A stretch of 64,000 bases of DNA from Escherichia coli. Lineage in GTDB: Bacteria > Pseudomonadota > Gammaproteobacteria > Enterobacterales > Enterobacteriaceae. The position numbers and the translations under genes were made by a program. A model generated the notes under the pieces. It saw nothing but the letters and a program-made list of their open reading frames with translations, was not told the origin of the DNA and ran no database searches. The stretch lies in the NCBI RefSeq assembly GCF_024700885.2, contig NZ_CP117016.1. One strand, given 5' to 3'. Within the stretch, counting starts at the first letter, position 1, and each line of letters begins with the position of its first letter. Below, in pieces: positions 4,532-44,825 of the stretch.

Positions 4532-6319
<1,788 letters not shown>

Positions 6320-7912: not shown

Positions 7913-8326
7913 TTAATACTGATTACCGGAACAAATGGGCAGATGCGTAAATCCGGGTTTGCTGGCCATATAAAGCGGCGCACAGGTAGGGTTGCGGGGT
8001 TCAGTGACCGGCACAGCCTCATTTTTCTCAGCCACCGACGGTTGTGACACCTTCCGGACAGCCGCTGATTTTTCCTTCTGAACCGGCTTCGTGGTGACCG
8101 GTGATTTCACCTGACGTTTGCCGGGTGCCACGCCATAACCAGAACAAAGGCGCTTCGACTGACTCAGACTTCCGTCATTGCAGACAAAACGTCCGTCTGA
8201 CGTACAGTGTGAAATACCACCTTTAGCACCCGAGCAGGGTTTTCTTCCCCGCGCAGCATCTGCCTGAACCGAAAATAAAAGCCCCACGAACAGAAAAAAG
8301 ATAATTTTCTTCATTTTAAAACTCAT
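7913..8326 (-). CDS. hypothetical secreted Cys-containing protein with signal peptide
   Basis: MKKIIFFLFVGLLFSVQADA signal-peptide-like N-terminus (from second Met); several Cys residues; AT-rich start. Confidence 0.45.
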   Translation of the reverse strand: MSFKMKKIIFFLFVGLLFSVQADAARGRKPCSGAKGGISHCTSDGRFVCNDGSLSQSKRLCSGYGVAPGKRQVKSPVTTKPVQKEKSAAVRKVSQPSVAEKNEAVPVTEPRNPTCAPLYMASKPGFTHLPICSGNQY

Positions 8327-8470
8327 ACATTGTTATTGCTGATATGCCCGAGTTATCAGGATGATGAAACATTCAGCCAGCGTTGTCATAAGCCAGAATA
8401 ATGTCACATTCACACCTGACATATATCCATCGCTGTTTATTTATTTCTGTTCTGCCCTCCCTGCTCCGGC

Positions 8471-8905
8471 TCACGTCTGCACGTAGCGCTGCTGTTTCAG
8501 ATGGCGCAACAACACCCTGCCCTCCGGTATAAATGTTGTTCCGTAACGAACCAGCCCGGCATCTTTAAGTTCTGCATCAATGACATAATGCAACTCACCA
8601 GGCTGAGTCTGTTCCTGCATCGTCACGTCGACGCGCTTAATACGTGGCTCATACTTCAGCAGAACGTCTGAAAGCACGCGCATCAGTTGATGCGCCGTCC
8701 CCGGCATTCCCTGCAGAATGGTTGTTATATCCGGCAGACCATAATCCGGAAGATGCTTAAGGCTTCCGGCACGGGTATTCAGAATACGCTGCATGTTATC
8801 GAGCACCGAAAGAATAACCTGCTCTTCCTCACCGACCTGGTTTAACTCCAGCCCGCCAGTGAAATTGCCATAGAGAATTTCATAAAGGGAAGGACGCGGC
8901 ATCAC
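8471..8905 (-). CDS. tssE: T6SS baseplate subunit TssE (gp25-like)
   Basis: 144-aa protein MMPRPSLYEILYGNFTGG... with GPW/gp25-like pattern; abuts tssJ. Confidence 0.8.
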   Translation of the reverse strand: MMPRPSLYEILYGNFTGGLELNQVGEEEQVILSVLDNMQRILNTRAGSLKHLPDYGLPDITTILQGMPGTAHQLMRVLSDVLLKYEPRIKRVDVTMQEQTQPGELHYVIDAELKDAGLVRYGTTFIPEGRVLLRHLKQQRYVQT

Positions 8906-9441
8906 TATTTATCCTTCACCGGTAACAGGGTCAGGGTGTTACCGGATACTTCAATAAGACGGGGCGTGTCCGGCTCAAGCTCATCCCGGCCCAGCACCAC
9001 CCGCCAGGTATTTTTCTTCTGGTCAGGCTCCAGAAACATTGCTGCCACACCGGTAAATTTCGCCGCATCATCCAGAGGCATATCCACGGCTACTGAACCA
9101 CCTGGCTGCAGCCATACATCTTTCTGTGCAATGATATCGCCTGCCAGAATTTCATTGTCCCCTGTAAAAAGCGCCTGATAATCCGCACTGTCAAAACTCC
9201 GGTTGTCTTTAAGCTGATAAATCCGCACCACAACCGACAGGGGAATACCGGCAGCACTGGTGTTAATGGCCTCCCTGGCACGAATATCCAGGTGAAGTGT
9301 TTTTATCTGTCGGTAAAACAGGGATTTCGTGGCAGATACCGTACCGTCTGCCACTCTTTGCGTCAGACCGCATCCTGATAACGACAGGGAAAACAACGCA
9401 ATAATCAGACCGTAACCAGCCTTACCAGCGATAATCGCCAT
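8905..9441 (-). CDS. tssJ: T6SS outer-membrane lipoprotein TssJ
   Basis: Lipobox LSLSGCG after signal peptide; 178 aa; position between tssG and tssE. Confidence 0.8.
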   Translation of the reverse strand: MAIIAGKAGYGLIIALFSLSLSGCGLTQRVADGTVSATKSLFYRQIKTLHLDIRAREAINTSAAGIPLSVVVRIYQLKDNRSFDSADYQALFTGDNEILAGDIIAQKDVWLQPGGSVAVDMPLDDAAKFTGVAAMFLEPDQKKNTWRVVLGRDELEPDTPRLIEVSGNTLTLLPVKDK

Positions 9442-38422: not shown

Positions 38423-39648
38423 GATAACGGTTCATGTATCCCCTGAGCTGACAGTGTACCGGTTATATTAAGCGTAACCGACAGGTTCTCCTTCATACCA
38501 TATTAAATTTTTCCAGGTATTGCCGCTGCCTTATTTCGTCCCATACAGGAAAACTCGTCTGGGTTTCTGACAAATACGTGAAACTCACAGCCCCTCAATA
38601 TCAACCACACGCTGTAAGCCGGTAATACCTGAAAATCAGCCTATTACCGCCCACGCCTCCGGCACTATTCCCTTTTGATTTCGAATTCTTTGTTGTCGCT
38701 ATACCGTGTAACATCACCGATACCACACACCGGCACAGATAACACCGGACTTATCGTAGCGCTGCTTCAATATTCAGGTGACATATTTCCAGACGGAAGC
38801 CGGCACGCGATCGTAAAATTTGCGGTCAGTTCTGCCAGCCGGTTGTCAACGGCAGAGTTAAAGGCTTCCAGCTCCGCAAGGGTAAGTTTATAACGCGTGT
38901 GGGAATTCACTTTTCCCGCGTCTCCTGACGTATTACGGGCTGCCACTTACCTGGTGTCCCGCAATACAGCCTTAGTGTTCCGTTATCGGGGATCCGGACG
39001 CACCGCAACAACCGGGGAAGTATTTCTGGTTAGAGCTGTGTCAAGAGGGATTTCTCAGCCCCTCACTCACCGGCTCAGTTTCAGGGCAGGAGCATTAATA
39101 CGCTCAGTTCATGTCTTATACAGGAATGGGCATAGGGGGAGCTGGCGTGTCACTGCTGATTTTACGCATCAGCGTTCATGTATTTGCACTCTGATACAGA
39201 ATGCTTCACAGCGCTCTGTTACCGGAGAGATTTACTCTCTTAGGTTATTCTGGCAAATCCTTTACGTTACTCTCTGATAACTTCTTATATTTATAATACC
39301 AATCAGACAGCCTTATCCCACCAGTGATACCTGTCCCGGCCCACAAGGCACGGGCTGCCCCACCGTAACTGCCCCGTAAATAACTCTGCAATTATCAGAA
39401 CGCCAGTTTTCCCCTCTTCCTCACGAAAATCATCCCTTCTTTATCGCGCGCGCGTGCGGAAGCATCGTTTCGTAACAACCACCCGGCATACCGGTACGGC
39501 TCAGCCACCGTAACCTCCCCGTTTATCTCCTGGCGGTCACATTCCCGATTATTTTTTACGTTTCTCCCCGGTTGTTATGCCGGTGAAGGTGGTGCGTTGT
39601 TTTCATGACCACACCGGCTGGTTTAACAACATCCGGAGGAACATTCTC

Positions 39649-40865: not shown

Positions 40866-42350
40866 TTACTTCGCTCTCAGCTTATTGTAGTGATAACCCG
40901 AGGTAAAAATACCAGAGACATCAGACAACTTTAAACTGGCTATCTGGGGAAGCAGAACATACATGGTTTTTCCTTCCGGCACGACAGAAAGCCTGAACTG
41001 AGATTCAAGAATGTTCAGCAATGCGTTCAGTTTTTTCCTGTTTCTGAACCGACCCGGGCCACACTGGAGAATATAATTTTTCCTGACACGGGGTGGGCAT
41101 TCTCCGCGGCACTCCTCAATGAGCCAGTCGAACAGCTCCTCGGCGTCCTTCTGCTGCAGTTCAGATTCATCAGGTAACGCAAATAATTTTTTATATTCAT
41201 CTGTGTACCACGAACTTATTACGACAGCAGACGTCATGATATCGGCAGAGATTTTCCCTTCACCATAGTTGAAATACTGAAATAACGCTGCAATTCTTGC
41301 AATGTTTTCTGTTTTTTTTGAAACATGTCCCCGAAACGGGCTTAAGGGTCCGGAAGGGGATAAATCCTGCTCCAGAACATTATAGTGCTCAATAAATATT
41401 TTTTGCGCTTCAGGCGAAAAATGCAGACAATACCGTTCATCCTCACTGGATTTTTCAATACTGCCTCTGGCCAGTTCCATTAATCGTTCATGAAATGCCG
41501 TTAATGATCCTCCCGGAATCACAGCTCCGTTAATAAAGCGTTTCCCCTGCGTGGTTGCAGGTTTACTGATAAGACAACGGGCAAGAAAACCACTGTCCCT
41601 GGCAACAGAACCTTTTCGCTCCATATATCGGTCAAAAAGACCGGGTTGCACCATGAGGGATAACGTCATTCTGGCATTTTCAATCATCTGTTCGGGTTCA
41701 TTCTTTCTGTCCACAGACAATACAGAGCCATCCCACATTTTGTTAATAAAAGGCAACTCAGACAGGGTATATCCATCAAATATAATACCGGCTTCATCTG
41801 ACATAATACCCACTGAACGCCATTTACCATAAAGCTGATTCTTAATTGCCGCAGTCGTGGCATCATTAAAAATGAATTTATACCTCACAGGTTCTTCCGC
41901 ACTGTTTTTCTGAAGTACTTCCAGTTGTCTGAGGGTTTCTGACTCATCCGCGCCTTTGCGGAGTTCTTTATTCAGTTTTGACAACAATGCTTTTTTCTGA
42001 GCCTTTAAAAGCTCTTCCTTGTTTTTCCAGACAGCCAGTTCACTTTTGTATCTGGAATATAACTGCATCTCCTGCTGGTACAGGGGCTTCATTAATAATT
42101 TGTCCACTGCGGTTTTTCGTTCTCCGGACTCGGCAAGCGTCAGGAAAAAAAGAGAGACCGGCCCCCGCAGTGTATTCAGTCTGCAGACATCAATCAGATT
42201 CTGGCAGACAAGTGAAACAGCGCCCAGGGCAGACGCTGCCACAAGCCCAAGGGGAGCCTGCGTAATTTGCTGAGCTTCAATAACGGCATCACGAATGAGT
42301 GGAGGCAGCGAACTCAGGGGAAACTCATCACAAGGCTGACCGAATGACAT
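40866..42350 (-). CDS. hypothetical prophage protein, possibly DUF3987 (YfjI-like)
   Basis: ORF track 40866..42419; likely start MSFGQPCDEF; family assignment from memory only. Confidence 0.4.
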   Translation of the reverse strand: MSFGQPCDEFPLSSLPPLIRDAVIEAQQITQAPLGLVAASALGAVSLVCQNLIDVCRLNTLRGPVSLFFLTLAESGERKTAVDKLLMKPLYQQEMQLYSRYKSELAVWKNKEELLKAQKKALLSKLNKELRKGADESETLRQLEVLQKNSAEEPVRYKFIFNDATTAAIKNQLYGKWRSVGIMSDEAGIIFDGYTLSELPFINKMWDGSVLSVDRKNEPEQMIENARMTLSLMVQPGLFDRYMERKGSVARDSGFLARCLISKPATTQGKRFINGAVIPGGSLTAFHERLMELARGSIEKSSEDERYCLHFSPEAQKIFIEHYNVLEQDLSPSGPLSPFRGHVSKKTENIARIAALFQYFNYGEGKISADIMTSAVVISSWYTDEYKKLFALPDESELQQKDAEELFDWLIEECRGECPPRVRKNYILQCGPGRFRNRKKLNALLNILESQFRLSVVPEGKTMYVLLPQIASLKLSDVSGIFTSGYHYNKLRAK

Positions 42351-43580
42351 AGTAACCTCACTACACACAGATATAAAAGCACTGCAATTCTGGCTATTAA
42401 TAGCAAAAATAGCAGTCAAATCAATATGAGGTAAAAATTTTTGTTGATTTAATGGTTAAATAATAACCACAGTGTGTTTTGCTGCTGAAGAAAGACAAAA
42501 TGAATCTGTGTGTCCCCTCCTTCCCTTCAGAGCACATCCACTATTCAAATTTTACACAACCACGTACGAACAAAAAGCATCATCCCGGGTATTGCAGATA
42601 CCGGTTTCCTGCCGGGATGAATCATAAACAGAACACCGGGAATAACGCCTTCAGGAATCCCCCCCCTCCTGAAGAAGAATAAAATAAAGAAGACTACATT
42701 TCCTGCACTGTATGCTGAGTACAATATTCTATGGACAGGATGACATATTTATAAATAACAAAAACCATTTAATACTGATACATCAATAAAATACTTCCTC
42801 CCTGCTGACGCAGATAAAATGCACCATTTTTTCTTCAAATACTTCTGTATAATCGCCAGCCAATGATGAGAATGGATTAAAATAACACTTCTTCGACAAA
42901 CACAAAAACAGCCTTCATTTTACATCATCATCCAGTTTCAGTTAACCCCGGACGAGCAACAGCGTTTCAGTACAGGAATTAAAAGCCAGCTTTTGCTCAG
43001 TAAAAACACACTCAACTAATAATATCTCAGCAGATATTATCCTGACCAGGACACCTCACATTACTGAATTCTCTTCCGACAGTATCACTGCACAAATAAA
43101 AAAGAACGGGATAAATATTCAGACCGGAAGAATGGTGTCACAAAAGCATTTAATCATTACGCATGACCAGGAAGGGAAACACTTAACCACATGGTATCAA
43201 CAGATATCATTACGTGTGCACTCTTATAAAAAACACACAGAAGAAGTAAGATAATTATAAATGTAAATTTAATATCTCCCACTGACATCTCCCCCACAAT
43301 ACACTGAAAAATACTCACAGCAGTAAACACAGACACACCTGATAATCATGCAGCCGATAAATATTTTCCCCTTTACGGAGAAATCAGCCTGCTGTTTAAC
43401 AATAACGGCGTATTTTCATGGAAGGAGATCACCCAGTAACGGATAAGTCCTGATCTCCTTCATGTTAATACGCAACAATCCCATCGATTAAAAACAATTT
43501 CAGACAGATATTATCTCCGTGAATCCCCCGCCACCTTTCCGGTGCGCGGGATTTTGTCTTTTTTCACCGGGAATACATGT

Positions 43581-44453
43581 ATGAATCCGTCTGATGCCAT
43601 TGAGGCAATTGAAAAACCGCTCTCCTCCCTGCCTTACTCGCTTTCCCGTCACATCCTGGAACATCTGCGCAAACTCACCCGTCACGAACCCGTGATTGGC
43701 ATTATGGGTAAAAGCGGGGCCGGTAAATCCTCACTCTGTAATGCACTGTTTCAGGGGGAGGTCACCCCGGTCAGTGATGTTCACGCCGGCACCCGGGAAG
43801 TACGGCGCTTCCGTCTGAGTGGCCACGGTCACAGCATGGTTATCACTGACCTGCCCGGGGTGGGCGAGAGCCGGGACAGGGATGCAGAGTATGAGGCCCT
43901 GTACCGTGACATTCTGCCTGAACTTGACCTGGTACTGTGGCTGATTAAAGCCGATGACCGTGCCCTGTCTGTGGATGAGTATTTCTGGCGACACATCCTG
44001 CACCGGGGACATCAGCGGGTACTGTTTGTGGTGACGCAGGCCGACAAAACGGAGCCCTGCCATGAATGGGATATGGCCGGTATTCAGCCTTCTCCTGCAC
44101 AGGCACAGAATATTCGCGAAAAAACGGAGGCGGTATTCCGTCTGTTCCGGCCCGTACATCCGGTTGTGGCCGTATCGGCCCGCACCGGCTGGGAACTGGA
44201 TACGCTGGTCAGTGCGCTCATGACAGCGCTTCCCGACCATGCCGCCAGTCCCCTGATGACCCGACTGCAGGACGAGCTGCGCACGGAATCTGTCCGGTCT
44301 CAGGCCCGTGAACAGTTTACCGGTGCGGTGGACCGGATATTTGACACGGCGGAGAGCGTCTGTATTGCCTCTGTTGCACGCACGGTTCTGCGTGCCGTCC
44401 GTGACTCGGTGGTCTCTGTTGCCCGCGCTGTATGGAACTGGATTTTCTTCTGA
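43581..44453 (+). CDS. yeeP: CP4-type prophage GTPase (YeeP/YkfA/YfjP family)
   Basis: P-loop GIMGKSGAGKSSLCNALF; DLPG switch motif; precedes flu as in CP4-44. Confidence 0.75.
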   Translation: MNPSDAIEAIEKPLSSLPYSLSRHILEHLRKLTRHEPVIGIMGKSGAGKSSLCNALFQGEVTPVSDVHAGTREVRRFRLSGHGHSMVITDLPGVGESRDRDAEYEALYRDILPELDLVLWLIKADDRALSVDEYFWRHILHRGHQRVLFVVTQADKTEPCHEWDMAGIQPSPAQAQNIREKTEAVFRLFRPVHPVVAVSARTGWELDTLVSALMTALPDHAASPLMTRLQDELRTESVRSQAREQFTGAVDRIFDTAESVCIASVARTVLRAVRDSVVSVARAVWNWIFF

Positions 44454-44572
44454 ACACTCTGCCAGGGGAAATGCCTGATTATATTGCATTAACAAACTGA
44501 AAACATGACACAAACCCCTCATACTCCTCCTGTTTCTCTTGCGTGACCGCCTTGTCGTTAATAGAATAAAAC

Positions 44573-44608
44573 GATCGATAAAACAGGTATCGATCGCTAC
44601 TATCGATC
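44573..44608. promoter_or_regulatory. three closely spaced GATC sites: Dam/OxyR phase-variation switch of flu (agn43)
   Basis: GATC at 44573-44576, 44592-44595, 44605-44608, ~220 bp upstream of the Ag43 start. Confidence 0.7.
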
Positions 44609-44825
44609 GTTTATAGTGGTTAATGGCCTGCGAAAAGGCAGCTGAATCTCTTCATCATGCAGAACGGAATTGCACACAACGGACTGATACTTCTCTGGCG
44701 GATGAGAGAGGGGAAGCATTTATGTCCGGGAAAAACCACTTTATCTGACCATGCTGTTTTGTACCTGCCGGTATCCACATTTGTGGGTACCGGCTTTTTT
44801 ATTCACCCTCTGTAAGGAAAAGCTG

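Follow-up and report, generated by a model that had tools for sequence, protein, structure and literature searches.

A putative promoter-leader cassette with a jumbo-phage sequence motif at the end of an AT-rich gap in a CP4-type genomic island of Escherichia coli

What, if anything, is encoded in a kilobase of AT-rich DNA lying between two divergent genes of a genomic island? This question is raised by the interval at positions 42351-43580 of a 64,000-nucleotide stretch of the Escherichia coli genome (contig NZ_CP117016.1, RefSeq assembly GCF_024700885.2), which was analysed as a whole and is called the window hereafter. The limits of the genes were taken from the RefSeq annotation, made with the Prokaryotic Genome Annotation Pipeline (PGAP), of NZ_AP022298 (BEC1-S17-ESBL-09), which is 100% identical to the window. 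On this basis, a yfjI-family gene (DUF3987; 40866-42350, minus strand; product "YfjI family protein") starts at 42350 and a GTPase gene of the yeeP/ykfA/yfjP family (43581-44453, plus strand; product "GTPase family protein") starts at 43581, and the two genes diverge from a gap of 1,230 bp. The first-pass annotation of the window had placed at 42420-43540 a very AT-rich non-coding region, devoid of open reading frames (ORFs) of 60 residues or more and flanked by divergent prophage genes, and had proposed it as a site of xenogeneic silencing or as the seat of an unannotated small RNA (sRNA). The gap is real: its GC content is 38.2%, as compared to 51.0% for the window, and it contains no annotated feature among the RefSeq records listed. 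It is slightly wider than had been indicated, because the longest possible ORFs had been taken for the flanking genes. Its GC content is among the lowest 2% of equal-sized windows but is not extreme, since a stretch at about 1450-2680 is the lowest of the window, with 34.5% GC over 1.2 kb. The lack of ORFs is nearly true, although a 67-residue ORF with a TTG start lies inside the interval (42479-42682, plus strand) and a 61-residue ORF with a GTG start straddles its right edge. The flanking genes are divergent as described, but the element that contains them is the conserved right arm of a CP4-type (P4-integrase) genomic island and not a true prophage.

The reading that we consider probable is that the interval is the junction of two parts of a CP4/P4-type island, and that it consists of about 1 kb of AT-rich spacer followed by a control cassette of about 90 bp belonging to the GTPase operon. 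We infer that the GTPase-led operon has its promoter and leader in this cassette. It occupies positions 43488-43580 and is the functional part of the interval, which the first-pass annotation missed, although the coordinates given there partly overlap the structured conserved leader at the 3' end (hairpin at 43527-43550).

The last ~90 bp of the interval (43488-43580) are conserved across at least 13 genera of Enterobacterales. When 29-31 distinct leaders, drawn from 13 genera, are aligned, their elements come in a fixed order, namely a promoter-like box, a GC-rich hairpin with a U-run, a ribosome-binding site and the ATG. In the window, the predicted promoter box (43488-43527, plus strand) is made of a -35-like TTAAAA at 43488-43493, a 15-nt spacer and a -10-like TATTAT at 43509-43514; its conserved core TTTCAGACAGATATTATCTCCGTGA corresponds to 43498-43522 and the predicted transcription start is near 43521. 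The consensus of the box, 25-35 nt long, is TTTCAGAyAGATATTATCTnnGTGA or, in its longer form, AATAATTTCAGAyAGATATTATCTCnGTGAAT, and the form found in the yfjP/ykfA subfamily is AAAATCTTCAGATAtATATCATCnCTCTGAAC. The box is present once per locus, upstream of the GTPase gene. The -10-like hexamer (TATTAT or TATCAT) sits in the palindrome AGATA-T-TATCT and is either invariant or TATCAT in all leaders; in the window it has the A at position 2 and the T at position 6 of a sigma-70 -10 element.

Downstream of the box, terminator scanning, folding and covariation identified a GC-rich hairpin (43527-43564 with its U-run, plus strand), in which CCCGCCACC and GGTGCGCGGG form a 9-bp stem with one bulge that closes a 5-nt loop (TTTCC) and is followed by the U-run TTTTGTCTTTTTT. 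The stem has a calculated energy of -15 kcal/mol, and the terminator scan called positions 43537-43551. RNAalifold analysis of 18 leaders found compensatory double changes at 5 of the 9 pairs, and in the yfjP/ykfA and Pectobacterium subfamilies this position is taken by unrelated stems. As modelled, hairpin and U-run look like an intrinsic terminator placed inside the leader. The ribosome-binding region (43563-43580, plus strand) is, according to RNAfold and duplex predictions, complementary to TCCGTGAA (43516-43523), at the 3' edge of the box, which would pair with TTCACCGGGA. In nearly all 31 leaders the ribosome-binding region has a complementary sequence in the box region or at its 3' edge, in differing registers (z-score -1.8 on average, down to -5.2), with pairs such as TTTCAGACAGA with TCTGTCTGAG, ATCTCAGTG with CACTGAGAT, and CTCTGAA with TTCAGAG. 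In the window, such complementarity might give rise to a helix masking the Shine-Dalgarno (SD) sequence.

Binding of the host RNA polymerase has been observed for relatives of this box. Genomic SELEX (systematic evolution of ligands by exponential enrichment) with the RpoD holoenzyme reported TTGAAA-15-TATCAT upstream of both ykfA and yfjP of E. coli K-12 (Shimada et al., 2014; PMC3946193). By sequence comparison this TATCAT is the -10-like element of the box, and therefore the host sigma-70 polymerase binds the K-12 boxes in vitro. By analogy with these paralogues, the copy in the window would also be bound by the sigma-70 holoenzyme. The K-12 "constitutive" promoters occupy the same position before paralogous GTPase genes, share the box TTCAGATAtATATCATC and show the same succession of box, hairpin, U-run and ribosome-binding site. 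The window copy differs in that it belongs to the other subfamily, with TATTAT instead of TATCAT and GTGAA instead of CTGAA, and in that it has a weaker -35 (TTAAAA) and a different hairpin stem. In K-12, CP4-57 and CP4-6 share only the promoter-leader with the interval; in CP4-44, yeeP is truncated and the region studied here is absent, and K-12 lacks this region. A literature search on ykfA, yfjP and yeeP in connection with phage infection found no expression data, and a text search for the sequence of the box returned unrelated primer lists only.

A second type of island makes use of the box as well. In a 21.5-kb IMG/VR contig (L067, positions 7960-9140) the box, hairpin and U-run stand directly before a DUF932 gene, without any GTPase gene, and the DUF932 gene is followed by a YqaJ-like exonuclease gene and an AlpA-like gene.

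A scan of IMG/VR with the box as an exact pattern retrieved further GTPase-gene leaders and, in several copies per contig, phage contigs of 220-243 kb. One of these is Erwinia phage vB_EamM_Huxley, which encodes split, phiKZ-like beta-type subunits of a multisubunit RNA polymerase. The complete Huxley genome contains 22 sites with at most six mismatches from TTTCAGATAGATATTATCTAGGTGA, all of them on the gene strand, intergenic and 40-80 nt before a start codon, and ATAGATATTATC is the commonest 12-mer of its plus strand. A BLAST search with the consensus as query gave 7-11 places per genome. The hits were in SPN3US-group phages, with Salmonella phage SPN3US and its relatives and Escherichia phages vB_EcoM_EC001 and Lh1B among them, and also in Proteus phage 7, in many Erwinia phages, in Serratia phage PCH45 and in an Aeromonas phage.

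A weight matrix was then built solely from the 22 Huxley sites. With this matrix, the site at 43490 (plus strand) of the window scores 27.4 bits (27.4-27.6), which lies between the lowest and the highest score of the 22 phage sites themselves (26.9-50.8 bits), whereas the next-best site in the 64-kb window reaches 13.7 bits. For the 29 island leaders the median is 31 bits and the highest score 47, and a 40-kb part of the genome of E. coli phage EC001 contains four sites with 40-47 bits. As a reference, among 2 million random 38-mers a fraction of 2.5e-6 reaches 10 bits and none reaches 15. The segment TTTCAGATAGA, which would be "spacer" and not "-10" in a sigma-70 promoter, adds 13-18 bits, more than the -10 hexamer itself, and one EC001 site is identical to the common island leader at 31 of 36 positions. 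The arrangement is also comparable: in the window, 58 nt separate the end of the core from the ATG of the co-oriented GTPase gene, and the phage sites are likewise intergenic, co-oriented and 40-90 nt from the start codon, with a stem-loop directly after about half of them.

On the strength of its sequence, the box is the same motif as the dominant repeated intergenic motif of SPN3US-type phages. No homologues of the island proteins were found in Huxley, and what island and phage share is a regulatory motif and not genes. As far as literature searches show, the membership of the box in a jumbo-phage promoter motif family is unreported. Both motifs are AT-rich, centred on a -10, co-oriented with the downstream gene and often placed before a stem-loop; the island box differs in being on a bacterial chromosome, once per island, next to genes whose products have no phage homologue, and in having a hairpin that is much stronger and GC-rich, with a long U-run. 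Several copies of box variants each were also seen in uncultured phage-like IMG/VR contigs (L059-L063, L093/L094, L124 and L129-L134, some of 98-232 kb), in which TTTCAGATATATATTATCTAGGTGAA or a TATCATC form precedes a stem-loop, an SD sequence and an ATG; L059 and L094, which carry the TATCAT variant, had no match in the phage collection.

In E. coli the box is widespread. The consensus query, the flanks of which are partly shaped on island sequence, matched 9,331 places in 4,254 of 5,426 complete genomes. This count is identical to that of the GTPase leader itself, and the one place that was inspected, in strain SE11, precedes a GTPase gene. In the rows that were sampled, either nothing or a hypothetical protein is annotated at the matches.

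According to a review, all jumbo phages that encode RNA polymerases carry a conserved AT-rich motif near -10 upstream of presumed early operons, and in every case put to the test this motif has proved to be the consensus of the early promoters, which are transcribed by the virion RNA polymerase injected with the DNA (PMC7598289). SPN3US builds a phage nucleus that is reported to keep the virion polymerase out (PMC13282480). By analogy with the reviewed phages, the SPN3US-group motif is probably an early promoter read by the virion polymerase. A further step, which we regard as unlikely at present, is that the promoter of the GTPase operon is a working copy of an SPN3US-type early promoter and is read by this phage enzyme. 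If so, in the uninfected cell the host polymerase would fire the box weakly and be stopped by the hairpin and U-run; upon infection, the injected virion polymerase would transcribe the GTPase, DUF932, antirestriction, RadC and CbtA-type toxin genes. The island would then sense infection through the transcription machinery of the phage, in the service of defence, abortive infection or hitch-hiking, and its two box variants, TATTAT..GTGAA and TATCAT..CTGAA, would mirror those of the phage promoter.

The late promoters Psid and PLL of satellite P4 are activated by the Ogr protein of its helper P2, which is a known case of trans-activation of a satellite. The likeness is that of a P4-integrase-type island with a promoter whose sequence is of the class used by a lytic phage, so that infection could in principle switch the island on. 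The differences are that no packaging, capsid-redirecting or helper-related genes were seen in the island and that the phages concerned are nucleus-forming jumbo phages.

We retrieved 31 loci encoding relatives of the GTPase from other species. In none of those having an upstream flank was yfjI found within 5 kb upstream of the GTPase gene. Beyond E. coli, conservation is recognisable in just the last ~90 nt of the interval, with 76-91% DNA identity, including loci whose GTPase protein has no more than 45-62% identity. Directly upstream of the block there are unrelated genes, encoding proteins of 120-1,375 residues, several of which end with a stop codon inside the box; in the leaders of other genera the -35 position is occupied by coding sequence and there is no -35. 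Since the upstream genes are unrelated and only the last ~90 nt are conserved, the block is the place at which a variable cargo slot meets a conserved module. A recurrent occupant of the slot, found in several genera, is an AT-rich family of about 300-400 residues without a Pfam domain, the stop codon of which lies in the AAATAA of the box. Its members include L011 3999-4916, L017 4032-4916, L024 3858-4916, L021 3690-4895 and L035 3872-4891, among others; W..W, FD.W and KAW.QK motifs are common to these proteins, and their C-terminus resembles a ribbon-helix-helix. Contigs L005, L030 and L033-L035, assigned to Lachnospiraceae or Collinsella bins, encode proteins 94-100% identical to those of the E. 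coli GTPase locus, and such E. coli-like contigs in Firmicutes and Actinobacteria bins are almost certainly E. coli contamination.

In the lineage of the window, the cargo slot is occupied by 1 kb of non-coding DNA, a fast-evolving AT-rich spacer at 42470-43487. Three E. coli lineages could be compared over the whole interval: the window, L036 (E. coli JNEC-KY176, ~88% identity) and L037 (~80% identity). Between them the spacer diverges at 12-23% of aligned positions, with 121-204 gap columns, as compared to 5-19% at fourfold-degenerate sites in yfjI and the GTPase gene on either side, across the same lineages. Judged from these alignments, about 85% of the interval is without sign of function and appears to drift at about the neutral rate or faster. 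The interval is a mosaic, with its first 270 nt nearest to L037 and the remainder nearest to L036, a pattern that suggests that copies of the island have recombined. Counting matches over at least 80% of its length, the interval is present in about 1,850 of the 5,426 complete E. coli genomes, often in multiple copies.

The spacer gave no sign of coding capacity or RNA structure. No ORF of at least 20 residues is intact in all three lineages, and nothing significant was obtained by searching the six-frame translations of the spacer against Pfam. An Rfam scan of 42200-43800 returned nothing at gathering thresholds; the matches were at chance level (E 1-10), the top one scoring 22 bits against a threshold of 52 (E 1.1). 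An internal stem-loop at ~42580-42619 is not kept in L036. Promoter-like consensus matches number 5, as compared to 3.9 expected from shuffled sequence. At the left end, an imperfect 36-bp palindrome (42381-42416), ~30-65 bp upstream of the yfjI start, was detected as an inverted repeat and as an opposite-strand self-match in the window copy and in L037; from its sequence and position, it may be an operator or a promoter region for yfjI.

What the spacer does contain is mobile DNA. A 70-nt palindromic insertion at 43404-43473 is flanked by the duplication AACAAT (43398-43403 and 43474-43479); it is absent from L037, in which the empty site has a single AACAAT. It folds with -30 kcal/mol (z-score -6.5) and has 24-nt inverted arms, two GATC sites and an SD-like AAGGAG in each arm. 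In E. coli, 2,716 genomes carry the same element, at 5,264 places altogether, and it is also present on IncF conjugative plasmids, just downstream of cdtC (cdtABC). Its inverted termini, the duplicated target site, its presence/absence polymorphism and its many copies are those of a miniature inverted-repeat transposable element (MITE); no transposase partner or name was identified for it. L036 has a 71-nt insertion of its own (L036 ~4865-4935), with the perfect palindrome GATCACGGTTTGGCCAAACCGTGATC, that aligns between positions 43156 and 43157 of the window and is perhaps another small mobile element of this spacer. In some strains (e.g., NZ_CP195442.1) the IS5-like element ISEc35 is inserted in the interval, the match to which is thus split in two.

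The composition of the spacer is asymmetric. The plus strand of the interval has 36% A, 26% T, 23% C and 15% G (GC skew -0.21, AT skew +0.16), an asymmetry within the top 1-2% of the window. For the spacer (42470-43490) the values are 24% C as compared to 15% G, and 36% A as compared to 25% T, and the bias is common to all three lineages.

Xenogeneic silencing, the first of the two functions proposed by the first-pass annotation, is the alternative that survives best, and we consider it possible, short of probable. It holds that the AT-rich kilobase is kept as a nucleation zone for H-NS/Hha filaments, which would extend over both divergent promoters and silence the island. A GC content of 38% in a 51% background suits such a role, and the length of the interval is held at 1.18-1.34 kb in the three lineages despite heavy turnover. 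Both sister islands have an intact hha ~3.3 kb beyond yfjI, which in the window is a pseudogene. On the other hand, the high-affinity H-NS consensus (tCGATAAATT) is not enriched, with 52 matches in the window as compared to 48.8 expected and just two 2-mismatch matches in the interval; the K-12 ykfA and yfjP sites are not flagged for H-NS overlap in the RpoD SELEX table (PMC3946193); and related islands in other genera function with 84-500 bp at this place. Silencing is, in any case, compatible with the junction of spacer and cassette that we favour and does not exclude it. The Hha/YmoA-family gene is frameshifted and truncated in the window (~38774-38913, minus strand) and intact in L036 (439-663) and L037 (600-812).

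That the spacer is the wreck of an AT-rich cargo gene, formerly encoding about 300-400 residues on the plus strand of the slot, seems doubtful to us. Its position, its size (0.9-1.2 kb), its GC content (32-40%) and its excess of A over T match those of the slot genes elsewhere, and L037 even retains the stop codon in the box (AAATAA). No similarity was found, however, when 15 slot proteins from other genera were compared with the spacer by tblastn (E at least 0.85), when a hidden Markov model of the ~300-residue slot family was run on the six-frame translations of the three lineages (E at least 0.33), or in the Pfam search. Each frame contains 15-32 stop codons, and the slot genes have more G than C on the coding strand, whereas the spacer has the opposite, strong bias of C over G. 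Since all three lineages are already non-coding, any decay must predate their 12-23% divergence.

The other proposal of the first-pass annotation, a free-standing sRNA, to which a small protein inside the spacer may be added, did not stand up and is in our opinion very unlikely. Promoter- and terminator-like matches do occur on both strands, and a minus-strand TTTATA-18-TAGAAT lies ~100 nt upstream of a conserved block at 42570-42630. Against this, the promoter-like matches are at the level of shuffled sequence, the bulk of the sequence is unconserved, no ORF survives in all lineages and the Rfam scan, a check suggested with the proposal itself, gave no structured-RNA match in the interval at gathering thresholds. 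The minus-strand candidate formed by the conserved block and its promoter-like sequence, at 42755-42726, was rejected, as its fold is no better than that of shuffled sequence (z-score -0.81) and its stem is lost in L036.

A recombination or replication site, i.e., an invertible switch with the 27-nt inverted repeat 42475-42501/43551-43577 or an origin beside the helicase/primase-like yfjI gene, can hardly be believed: this repeat brackets nearly the whole interval, yfjI is inverted relative to its K-12 CP4-57 homologue and the boundary between the variable and conserved parts of the island falls exactly at the box, but the left arm of the repeat is not conserved in L036, the full-length matches among the genomes listed are all single collinear pieces with no inverted variant, and there are no iterons and no direct-repeat family, only two-copy repeats at chance level.

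Returning to the junction of spacer and cassette, its two parts could work as follows. The spacer (42470-43487), which gathers small mobile insertions and encodes nothing conserved, would most likely do no more than keep the two divergent promoters apart as passive AT-rich DNA, probably under a coat of H-NS/Hha. Transcripts entering from the cargo slot would be halted at the hairpin, and their ribosome-binding site would be masked by the upstream complementary segment. Transcripts started at the box would lack the masking segment and would be translatable if they pass the hairpin. The net effect would be an operon insulated from upstream insertions and expressed at a low basal level.

Several points weigh against this picture. 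The start site, the activity of the terminator and the masking helix are all predictions. The -35-like TTAAAA matches the consensus at 4 of 6 positions and stands at a 15-bp spacing, and a sigma-70 consensus scan that needs a spacing of 16-18 bp made no call at the box. The anti-SD complementarity is modest in many leaders (z-score 0 to -2), and the sequences compared are related to each other. A terminator ~5-45 nt past the predicted start would stop box-started transcripts too; being so close to the start, it obliges the model to include partial read-through or an antiterminating condition. As for the spacer, 1.1-1.3 kb of filler has been retained in three diverged lineages, which an inert sequence does not explain, and a purely inert spacer also leaves the strong bias of C over G and of A over T unaccounted for. 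As regards the link to phages, the early-promoter role of the SPN3US-group motif comes from a review of related phages.

Among known systems, the leader can be compared with attenuators that have SD-masking helices, with which it shares a GC-rich hairpin and U-run between promoter and ribosome-binding site and an upstream segment complementary to the latter. It differs from them in that no alternative antiterminator, leader peptide or ligand-binding fold was identified, and in that the hairpin starts just ~5 nt past the predicted start.

The island containing the interval is located between a type VI secretion cluster and the kps capsule cluster, and its degenerate relatives in K-12 are CP4-44, CP4-57 and CP4-6. 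The yfjI gene is the last of the left block of the island, composed of helix-turn-helix regulator and yfjI genes, and the homologous block in K-12 CP4-57 is intA-alpA-yfjI; a helix-turn-helix regulator gene and the hha pseudogene lie beyond it. YfjI of the window has 52% identity to K-12 YfjI and 90-92% to that of the other two E. coli lineages. On the other side, the GTPase gene heads about 14 co-oriented genes, which encode, besides the GTPase, Ag43, a large hypothetical protein, IrmA, DUF905, DUF932, antirestriction, JAB/RadC and DUF987 proteins, the YeeU antitoxin, the CbtA toxin, and DUF5983, DUF957 and DUF4942 proteins. PADLOC gave weak generic matches of the GTPase to LeoBC/LeoA GTPases and no match for yfjI. 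Between the GTPase and Ag43 genes there is an Rfam match to IS102/IsrC (44571-44807, plus strand; 72.5 bits with a gathering score of 46), a placement that parallels the one between yeeP and flu in K-12; it lies outside the interval and is the only gathering-level Rfam match in the window.

The promoter-leader cassette is a new form of known kinds of element, and the AT-rich gap by itself is ordinary. For the annotation of such islands, the lesson is that an apparently empty AT-rich gap of 1.2 kb consists for the most part of filler prone to drift, its last 90 bp being the functional element. The module formed by the GTPase, DUF932, antirestriction, RadC and CbtA genes is among the commonest accessory blocks of E. 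coli, and its control region had not been described previously; the box occurs at ~9,000 places in ~4,200 of the 5,426 complete genomes, up to seven per genome. The motif match provides a testable link between a common island and a group of jumbo phages that is hard to detect owing to its shielded DNA. If the phage polymerase reads the island promoter, this would be a case of infection sensing by promoter mimicry. If the host polymerase reads both, the "early promoters" of SPN3US-type phages would be of the host type, and the picture of early transcription in these phages would have to be revised.

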